Of a stretch of DNA of 64,000 nt, positions 14,693 through 14,977 are shown one piece after another. Within the stretch, counting starts at the first letter, position 1. Each line of letters starts with the position of its first letter. Under the pieces are notes generated by a model that did no database searches, was not told where the DNA came from, and worked only from the letters and a program-made list of their open reading frames with translations. The position numbers were made by a program, and so were the translations under genes. The DNA comes from Escherichia coli (GTDB taxonomy: Bacteria; Pseudomonadota; Gammaproteobacteria; Enterobacterales; Enterobacteriaceae), in the NCBI RefSeq assembly GCF_003018255.1, contig NZ_CP027440.1. One strand, 5' to 3'.

Positions 14693-14977
14693 GGCGGATG
14701 CGGCGTGAACGCCTTATCCGCCCTACATGTGCAATCCCGAAGGCCAGATAAGACGCGGCAAGCGTCGCATCCGGCAATTGCACCGCGCCACTGGCGGATG
14801 CGGCGTGAACGCCTTATCCGCCCTACATGTGCAATCCCGAAGGCCAGATAAGACGCGGCAAGCGTCGCATCCGGCAATTGCACCGCGCCACTGGCGGATG
14901 CGGCGTGAACGCCTTATCCGCCCTACATGTGCAATCCCGTAGGCCGGATAAGACGCGGCAAGCGTCGCATCCGGCAT
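14693..14977. repeat. BIME-like array: three tandem 100-bp units, each with two inverted REP-like palindromic units; units 1 and 2 identical, unit 3 diverged
   Basis: Unit starts (ggcggatgcggcgtgaacgccttatccgccctac...) at about 14693, 14793 and 14893; lies between eutH start and eutG stop. Confidence 0.85.

Follow-up and report, generated by a model that had tools for sequence, protein, structure and literature searches.

Ethanolamine use matters in gut colonization and in EHEC signaling, and the eut operon is medically relevant. In the Escherichia coli DNA analyzed here (a 64-kb stretch, hereafter the window), the eut genes eutG and eutH are separated by a tandem repeat, which raises the questions of what this element is, how it came to its present number of units, and whether it alters the expression of the operon in which it lies. 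EutH and EutG, together with EutA and EutJ beyond them, gave full-length NCBIfam equivalog matches, all on the minus strand. The window matched the complete genome of E. coli JNE23-011 (NZ_AP045067.1) at 100% identity. There, the eut operon forms an unbroken 17-gene run, eutS through eutR, in which no other gap comes close in width to the 316-bp eutG-eutH spacer. The array begins 1 base past the eutG TAA and ends 30 nt ahead of the eutH ATG (14661). This agrees with the first-pass annotation, which had placed it after the stop codon of eutG and before the ribosome-binding site of eutH, and the surrounding 17-gene operon is intact. No strand had been given in that annotation; the genes and the transcript are on the minus strand.

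Tandem Repeats Finder reported a single array, at 14692..14976, with a period of 100, 2.8 copies, 98% matches, and no indels. In a repeat search, the copies at 14692-14791 and 14792-14891 were 100% identical, and the third copy, from 14892, stayed in register for 85 nt and then met the end of eutG, giving 2.85 units in total. Within its 85 nt, the third copy carried two substitutions (A14940T and A14946G, + strand). The first-pass annotation had described three tandem 100-bp units, two of them identical over 100 bp and the third with a few changes. The array, its period, the identity of the two units, and the few changes were all recovered, whereas the total is 2.85 units rather than three full ones and the unit starts lie one base away from where they had been put. 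Two oppositely oriented REPs had also been proposed for each unit, and both imperfect palindromes were found in every unit, in opposite orientation (arms 14693-14706/14709-14722 and 14943-14956/14962-14975, plus their copies). Read in the direction of transcription (minus strand), the array runs Z-Y-Z-Y-Z-Y, giving six REP hairpins (Table 1). The second Z-like unit from eutG (REP 3, variant B) differs by a C-to-T change, which leaves a G.U pair in the sense RNA, and its foot reads GAAG rather than GTAG (+ strand).

Table 1. Positions in the window of the array elements and flanking genes, listed in the order of transcription, followed by the Rfam matches
Feature	Position	Strand	Remarks
eutG	14978..16165	-	Source-genome annotation; mechanical ORF to GTG 16192; NCBIfam equivalog model
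eutG stop codon TAA	14978..14980	-	Then one A before REP 1
REP 1, Z2-like, 38 nt, TGCCGGATGCGACGCTTGCCGCGTCTTATCCGGCCTAC	14939..14976	-	-22.8 kcal/mol; first paired base 3 nt past eutG stop; GTAG foot intact (+ strand)
Head-to-head linker, 12 nt, GGGATTGCACAT	14927..14938	-	
REP 2, Y type, 35 nt, GTAGGGCGGATAAGGCGTTCACGCCGCATCCGCCA	14892..14926	-	-20.9 kcal/mol; 32/35 identity to REP325 Y
Tail-to-tail linker, 15 nt, GTGGCGCGGTGCAAT	14877..14891	-	G-rich, sense strand
REP 3, Z2-like variant B	14839..14876	-	-20.6 kcal/mol
12-nt linker, second copy	14827..14838	-	
REP 4, Y type	14792..14826	-	
15-nt linker, second copy	14777..14791	-	
REP 5, Z2-like variant B	14739..14776	-	Same sequence as REP 3
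12-nt linker, third copy	14727..14738	-	
REP 6, Y type	14692..14726	-	Final array element
eutH leader, unique 30 nt, ATAAATAACAACTAACAGGGAGTAAAGGCG	14662..14691	-	Shine-Dalgarno GGGAG at 14674..14670
eutH	13435..14661	-	NCBIfam equivalog model; downstream of array
RF02564 (naRNA4, Y-linker-Z2 REP pair) match	14842..14923	-	75.5 bits; gathering score 59.5
RF02564 (naRNA4) match, second copy	14742..14823	-	75.5 bits

Judged by these features, the eutG-eutH array is almost certainly a canonical BIME-2, built of alternating Y and Z2-like REP palindromes. BIME-2 elements combine y and z2 REPs, inverted relative to each other and joined by short linkers, in many tandem copies; the copies are well conserved within a locus, and their number differs between strains (PMC3333891). 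At the eut locus, the y/z2 alternation, linkers of 12 and 15 nt, 2.85 tandem units, and a strain-variable number were all found, the typing of the Z units as z2 and not z1 resting on the comparison with REP325. REPs are imperfect palindromes of ~35-40 nt with a mismatch inside the stem and a GTAG foot (CTAC on the complement), and the eut palindromes are of this kind; all three Y units have GTAG, as does one of the three Z units, and the remaining two Z units read GAAG. The array is extragenic, and at the stringency of megablast a query containing the units had a median of 8 matches in each E. coli genome. Against the Rfam family RF02564 (naRNA4), two full-length matches were obtained, each with 75.5 bits on the minus strand (threshold 59.5) compared with 50 bits for the plus strand, and these were the sole Rfam gathering-level hits across the 64-kb window. 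The REP/BIME identity proposed in the first-pass annotation is thus borne out by the palindromes, by the likeness to REP325, and by the RF02564 score above threshold. The K-12 RefSeq feature table lists no REP features, and even REP325 is missing from it. A blastn-short census located further REPs in the window at ~39632-39694, 44320-44351, and 50827-50861.

BIME-1 was also considered. This class is a single z1-y pair with a long conserved L linker, often with an IHF site (PMC3333891), and it was rejected for the eut array because the linkers, at 12 and 15 nt, are too short and the pair is tandemly repeated. With the BIME-2 family (Gilson/Bachellier, summarized in PMC3333891), there was no categorical difference. 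The y/z2 alternation, the short linkers, the conserved tandem copies of variable number, and the use as an IS1397 target are shared, as are, in most eut units, the GTAG foot and the stem mismatch needed by TnpA(REP). A TnpA(REP) substrate needs a 5' GTAG and a mismatched stem, together with C|T cleavage sites at the inverted REP or in the linker (PMC3333891). Every Y unit and the eutG-proximal Z unit have these sequence features, and the duplicated B units carry GAAG in Z; the TnpA(REP) gene is not near the eut locus.

The closest characterized relative is REP325 of E. coli K-12 (yjdM-yjdN; RF02564; PMC4550694). The two arrays share the 100-bp period and, with respect to the direction of transcription, the order Y-linker-Z; each lies between two co-transcribed genes, and their hairpins are alike in size and stability. 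The eut Y unit was identical to the REP325 Y unit at 32 of 35 positions, and the eut Z unit matched REP325 Z2 at 35 of 38, with one extra loop base and with a G in the outer stem where REP325 has a T. Over the whole unit, identity was ~75%, rising to 82% over Y-linker-Z, and the eut units scored 74-77 bits against RF02564, compared with 95-111 bits for the units of REP325 itself. The two arrays differ in unit number (three in eut, six in K-12 REP325), in linker length (12 and 15 nt in eut, 17 and 11 nt in REP325), and in linker composition (G-rich on the sense strand in eut, whereas the U linker of REP325 is C-rich). They also differ in how they start, since the eut array opens with a Z unit 1 nt past the stop codon and REP325 with a Y unit 16 nt past the yjdM stop. 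The function of REP325 has been tested experimentally, whereas that of the eut array is a presumed one.

REP hairpins inside polycistronic mRNA are also found at malE-malF and hisJ-hisQ, where two or three REPs are present and an effect on mRNA decay has been measured. At these sites and at eut, the REPs lie downstream of a gene that would be expressed above the distal genes; the eut element, unlike those sites, is a tandem 100-bp array. malE-malF and hisJ-hisQ are classical intercistronic REP stabilizers (Higgins et al. 1982, as cited in PMC12306157).

Folded alone, each of the six REPs forms a 13-14-bp stem that is mismatched near its center, with energies between -20.6 and -22.8 kcal/mol. 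The spacer RNA as a whole folds at -166.2 kcal/mol, compared with -135.1 +/- 5.2 in shuffled sequences (z = -5.96), and 0/100 shuffles were as good. A consensus scan found no intrinsic terminator in 14662..14977 on either strand; no U tract follows any hairpin, and the last Y unit is followed by AAUAAAUAAC. An identity as an intrinsic (Rho-independent) terminator was rejected on this absence of a terminator-like site. Likewise, no sigma-70-like site that might serve as an internal eutH promoter was found within 14300-15300. Rho loads on RNA that is untranslated, C-rich, and G-poor. The 316-nt spacer is untranslated, and the C/G ratio on its sense strand was 0.87 (0.75-1.10 in 78-nt windows), compared with 1.29 (up to 1.65) for REP325, a measure that serves as a composition heuristic only. 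The sense strand is rich in G in both eut linkers, and Rho loading should therefore be poorer. Among the stem substitutions that distinguish the alleles, by our own reading, C31T and C13T keep a G.U pair in the sense RNA, G23A and G32A keep one in the antisense RNA only, and two others break both. There was no bias toward sense-strand G.U pairs among these changes (2 vs 2 events, too few to decide).

The period of the array bears directly on the open reading frames called across it. Seven short ORFs start or lie in the array (14677-14883, 14681-14851, 14723-14977, 14727-14942, 14827-15159, 14923-15129, and 14927-15373). The first-pass annotation had treated the overlapping calls as a spurious product of the repeat, which fits the frame shift introduced by each unit: because the 100-bp period is not a multiple of three, the length and sequence of such an ORF vary with unit number, and coding potential was rejected on this ground. 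The best candidate for a real peptide is an 84-codon ORF whose AUG abuts the eutG stop (UAAAUG), an arrangement that could permit termination-reinitiation. However, this ORF shrinks to 28 codons in one-unit alleles, no Shine-Dalgarno sequence lies upstream, and its product is Arg/Cys-rich, as expected of translated REP DNA. Moreover, its ATG consists of the first REP bases and is missing in Salmonella and some Escherichia clades. A genuine peptide encoded here is scarcely credible.

The locus was found in essentially all of 5,426 complete E. coli genomes, with differing spans, and the eutG and eutH flanks lay within 750 bp of each other in 5,393 of 5,411 records. Allele shares were taken from two systematic 60-row samples, one obtained with an array-containing query and the other with a flanks-only query; the samples agreed and were pooled to 119 chromosomal loci. 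Two units, the K-12 allele among them, were present in 42% of these loci and one unit in ~31%, followed by three units (7%), five units (6%), and four units (1%). The remainder comprised a decayed single unit of the O157:H7 type (7%), an alternative repeat (4%), and disrupted loci (2.5%). Comparing copy number across E. coli genomes, as the first-pass annotation had suggested, thus revealed a variable array of 1-5 units, with two the commonest.

The spacer grows with unit number, from 116 bp with one unit (TUM14697) to 216 bp with two (K-12 MG1655, P4), 316 bp with three (the window, FDAARGOS_1256), 416 bp with four (YSP8-1), and 516 or 515 bp with five (MS20657, EP91A); five units were also found in strain 042 and its relatives. 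In K-12 MG1655, the 216-bp spacer between eutG (b2453) and eutH (b2452) holds the same element at the same insertion point and with the same flanks, as two units and not three; the K-12 operon is split by the CPZ-55 prophage between eutA and eutB, and this prophage is absent from the window. Other alleles depart from the simple series. In O157:H7 and APEC37, a 99-bp spacer holds one decayed unit in which Z has lost its 5' arm and Y is mutated. Strain 50579417 has a 169-bp spacer with an unrelated GC-rich palindromic repeat; by direct count, this alternative repeat occupies the eutG-eutH site in 304 of 5,426 genomes (5.6%), and it is dispersed, with a median of 7 places per genome. In MRSN346647, a deletion has joined eutG codons to a Y unit at a CGCATC microhomology. 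In SK1402, the spacer is 1651 bp long because IS1397 lies in the loop of the first Z unit, an event to be expected since E. coli REP sequences are the reported specific target of IS1397 insertion (PMC1525189). Among the sampled genomes, unit number mostly tracked lineage and not ecology. Unit number at the eutG-eutH junction changes recurrently, from 1 to ~6 units.

To describe composition as well as number, distinct 85-nt unit cores were labeled by letter. The window array reads [A B B], an allele also found in JNE112863 (identical flanks) and in SCU-171 (flanks 98.2% identical). Among two-unit arrays, that of the nearest relative (2017.09.02CC, with 98.6% identity in the flanks) reads [A B], and that of K-12 reads [C E]. 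Other three-unit alleles are [C D E] in E. coli B, [A F G], [A G H], and [A I B], so that five distinct three-unit compositions were seen. The comparison of cores shows that [A B B] arose from [A B] by duplication of one 100-bp unit. The recent tandem amplification proposed in the first-pass annotation is supported by this contrast between the nearest relative and the window, since derivation of the window allele from [A B] makes the duplication recent. Replication slippage or unequal exchange between direct repeats would be the simplest route, because the duplicated B units carry GAAG and not GTAG in Z. TnpA(REP) may offer an alternative route, as the Y units keep the features that this enzyme requires.

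A third unit produced by mis-expansion of a two-unit repeat during assembly was considered as well. Assemblers may miscount at two 100%-identical units, and two units are the commonest allele. However, [A B B] is present in three independent complete genomes with the same unit count, one of them with flanks diverged by 1.8%. Other genomes carry three, four, and five units of differing composition that are not products of collapse or expansion, and long reads easily span the 285-bp array. An assembly artifact is therefore very improbable.

The eutG-eutH spacer was also measured at 42 species-representative loci, located with a degenerate DNA pattern for the EutH N terminus. Spacers of 27-48 nt without a REP were found in the Citrobacter amalonaticus group, Yokenella, Pluralibacter, Hafnia, and Morganella. 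A single REP was present in Salmonella enterica subsp. diarizonae and C. sedlakii, one REP pair in the C. freundii and C. koseri groups and in Pseudocitrobacter (119-123 bp), and two to four Klebsiella-type REPs in Klebsiella (194-216 bp). The 100-bp tandem array was seen in Escherichia, with one unit in E. whittamii, three in sp. E1V33, ~4.7 in MOD1-EC7003, and ~5.7 in SCPM-O-B-8794. The array predates the diversification of Escherichia and is ancestral to the genus. The REP-free 27-nt Citrobacter spacer aligns with the unique 30-nt eutH leader of E. coli, and the array is therefore a clean insertion directly past the eutG stop, into a spacer that would otherwise measure ~30 nt. The genus-specific REPs at this junction fit either a target preference for the gap or some benefit.

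What, then, would the array do? Because it is co-transcribed within the eut mRNA, its most likely mode of action is local and at the RNA level, through its six hairpins, as in REP325. The hairpins would block 3'-to-5' exonucleases and thus protect the upstream eutS-G segment, and less full-length transcript would arrive at eutH-R. In addition, with its start 3 nt past the stop codon of eutG, the first stem may impede ribosomes terminating on eutG and so reduce EutG. Translation of an upstream gene can be reduced by REPs that lie less than 16 nt past its stop codon (Liang, Rudd and Deutscher 2015, as reported in PMC12306157), and at eut the REP itself begins 1 nt, and its first paired base lies 3 nt, past the TAA; stalled ribosomes and tagging by tmRNA would be the predicted consequence. 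In REP325, deletion of the array raised the downstream yjdN ~8-10-fold and lowered the upstream yjdM; the array stabilizes yjdM mRNA, cuts yjdN read-through, and yields a ladder of hairpin-ended transcripts (bioRxiv 10.64898/2026.03.23.713779). Termination there is only partly Rho-dependent, and only in the full 12-hairpin array, fragments of 2-4 hairpins having no Rho dependence (bioRxiv 10.64898/2026.03.23.713779). On this ground, the termination component may be weak in the six-hairpin, G-rich eut array. The role proposed in the first-pass annotation, an mRNA stabilizer or partial terminator that sets eutS-G apart from eutH-R, is a reasonable analogy, weakened by the absence of a terminator site, by the G-rich linkers, and by the many lineages without the array. 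Among the papers searched, none linked eutG or eutH with REPs, and neither gene was named in the supplements of the gyrase Topo-seq and RepRanger papers.

Any such effect is expected to be modest, tuning the operon rather than forming a required part of it. It would also be dispensable, because the array is decayed, replaced, or absent in many lineages and genera. The O157:H7-type decay, the replacement in 304 of 5,426 genomes, and the absence from several genera argue against strong selection. Taken as a joint statement, a BIME-2 with a modest tuning role at the RNA level is the account that we consider probable; for the tuning role of the eut array by itself, our analysis puts the chances at roughly even.

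The same distribution could also be read as that of a selfish or neutral passenger, settled in the operon's only permissive gap, driven by slippage or by TnpA(REP), and with a negligible effect on eut. Presence/absence and copy-number polymorphism at the site would suit such a passenger, as would the decayed unit of O157:H7-type genomes, the replacement of the unit by a different dispersed repeat in 5.6% of genomes, the insertion sequence and deletion alleles, and a copy number that mostly follows lineage and not ecology. The REP-free 27-48-bp spacers of the C. amalonaticus group, Yokenella, Pluralibacter, Hafnia, and Morganella are likewise in keeping with it. However, six co-transcribed hairpins of about -21 kcal/mol right after a stop codon are unlikely to be inert, and measurable effects are seen for REP325 and for REP-separated gene pairs genome-wide. 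The recurrence of genus-specific REPs at the junction in Salmonella diarizonae, Citrobacter, Klebsiella, and Pseudocitrobacter fits either a target preference or a benefit. A pure passenger is a possible reading, though a rather doubtful one.

An improbable alternative places the role at the level of DNA, with the array serving as a gyrase binding/cleavage or cruciform site that manages supercoiling in an operon that is long and strongly induced, or as a source of naRNA4-like RNA acting with HU to organize the nucleoid. Gyrase cleavage sites are over-represented in BIME-2, preferentially at y-type REPs and independently of transcription (PMC6379681), but neither the text nor the supplements of the gyrase study name the eut locus as such a site. 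Similarly, the eut units exceed the Rfam naRNA4 threshold, and naRNA4 was first reported to condense DNA with HU (PMC4550694); however, REP325/naRNA4 was later reported to be without measurable nucleoid compaction, with no REP-REP contacts seen (bioRxiv 10.64898/2026.03.23.713779). The site is, moreover, dispensable in many lineages, and a role in DNA would be compatible with effects at the RNA level, which we continue to favor.

REPs, BIME-2 elements, and their copy-number variation between strains (PMC3333891), the targeting of REPs by IS1397 (PMC1525189), and stabilizer/attenuator effects are already established. The allele spectrum and the cross-genus comparison may add new descriptive detail, with no new element or mechanism. 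For annotation, the analysis marks seven ORF calls as spurious and accounts for the widest intercistronic gap of the eut operon. It also identifies the eutG-eutH spacer as a 100-bp VNTR, at which short-read assemblies may miscount. If the array does act at the RNA level, the natural alleles, from 0 to at least 5 units, would provide a ready series for the dual terminator/stabilizer model; this would be an incremental advance and no new principle.

The genes downstream of the array encode the lyase, the permease, shell proteins, and the autoregulated activator EutR. A more far-reaching possibility, which we regard as unlikely, is that unit number works as a heritable rheostat, each hairpin pair further lowering read-through into eutH-A-B-C-L-K-R relative to eutS-G. 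Its range would run from zero or a decayed unit in O157:H7-type genomes through one or two units in most lineages, three here, and five in 042 to ~6 in the cryptic clades, and the recurrent genus-specific REPs at the junction would then reflect selection and not target preference. Should this hold, the stoichiometry of the microcompartment would vary between lineages, as would the threshold at which the use of ethanolamine in the gut is induced.

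The BIME-2 array between eutG and eutH was disrupted in two comparison strains, by insertion in one and by deletion in the other. In E. coli SK1402, the IS3-family element IS1397 separates eutG from eutH and thereby splits the eut operon; its junctions read GACGCTTGC / IS / TGCCGCGTC, with duplication of TGC. In E. coli MRSN346647, the deletion junction lies at a CGCATC microhomology shared by eutG coding sequence and a Y REP, in the latter case within its 3′ arm. The array therefore also gives rise to rearrangements that inactivate genes.

Coordinates of the features in the window and in loci fetched from other genomes (L handles).
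Feature	Location	Strand	Remarks
IS1397 (IS3 family) insertion	L006:2771-4421 (E. coli SK1402)		placed precisely within the loop of the Z REP nearest eutG
Deletion allele	L007:2771-3200 (E. coli MRSN346647)		lacks the eutG 3′ portion and the initial units of an array of the five-unit type
Decayed single unit	L010 (O157:H7 Show KS 470-1) and L013 (APEC37)		99-bp spacer; O157:H7-type genomes
Spacer with the 139-nt alternative repeat	L011:871-1039 (E. coli 50579417)		counterpart of window 14662-14977; opens CCCCTCGCCCCTTTGGGGAGAGGGTTAGGGTGAGGGG...
84-codon ORF through the array	window 14723-14977	minus	AUG directly abuts the eutG stop (UAAAUG)
Unpaired linkers of the eut array	window 14727-14738, 14777-14791 and copies		compared with L014 (REP325, K-12 array between yjdM and yjdN)
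Y and partial Z2 pair	window ~39632-39694
Single Y-like unit	window ~44320-44351
Single REP unit	window ~50827-50861		35 nt identical to eut Z
eutR	window ~7402-8526
eutB-eutA junction	window ~12024-12034

In O157:H7-type genomes, 17 nt forming the 5′ arm was missing from the Z REP of the single unit, and the Y REP carried point changes together with a 1-nt deletion. No stable hairpin is left beside the eutG stop in this pathotype. In 304 of 5,426 complete E. coli genomes, an unrelated GC-rich palindromic repeat of 139 nt occupied the place of the BIME-2 array, and the insertion point was identical. This repeat was itself dispersed; the median number of sites in a genome was 7. An Rfam search returned no family for it at the gathering score; it probably resembles the Box C or RSA-type small repeats.

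The spacer upstream of eutH was also compared across species representatives (L015-L056). Genus-specific REP types were found at the eutG-eutH junction in Salmonella diarizonae, Citrobacter, Klebsiella, and Pseudocitrobacter, and junctions of 27 to 48 nt without REP were found in the C. amalonaticus group, Yokenella, Pluralibacter, Hafnia, and Morganella. The spacers of Morganella and Pluralibacter gergoviae contained a small conserved hairpin (CAGCCTG-CGCGA-CAGGC) immediately 5′ of the ribosome-binding site.

Elsewhere in the window, three further REP sites were found, with a tandem array at none of them. At the eutB-eutA junction, the two genes are adjacent, with 11 nt between them. The cryptic prophage CPZ-55 (6.8 kb), which lies between eutA and eutB and splits the operon in K-12, was absent from the window; therefore, the eut operon of the window strain is intact, in contrast to that of K-12. 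Separately, eutR was annotated at 374 aa in the source genome versus 350 aa in K-12, and in both its start lies at the same position with respect to eutK. These annotation lengths imply a C-terminal extension of ~24 aa, which would overlap the 3′ end of the convergent hemF (~7468) by 67 bp.

With regard to the ORF that begins at UAAAUG, the one-unit alleles would carry a version of 28 codons, ending in a TAA directly past the last Y REP. The ORF is probably accidental; if ribosomes reinitiated at UAAAUG, the array hairpins would be unwound. On the sense strand, the linkers of the eut array were G-rich (4 G against 2 C in one, 7 G against 3 C in the other), whereas the 17-nt U linker of REP325 was C-rich (9 C to 1 G). 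Therefore, Rho dependence may vary among arrays of the same class with the composition and orientation of their linkers.
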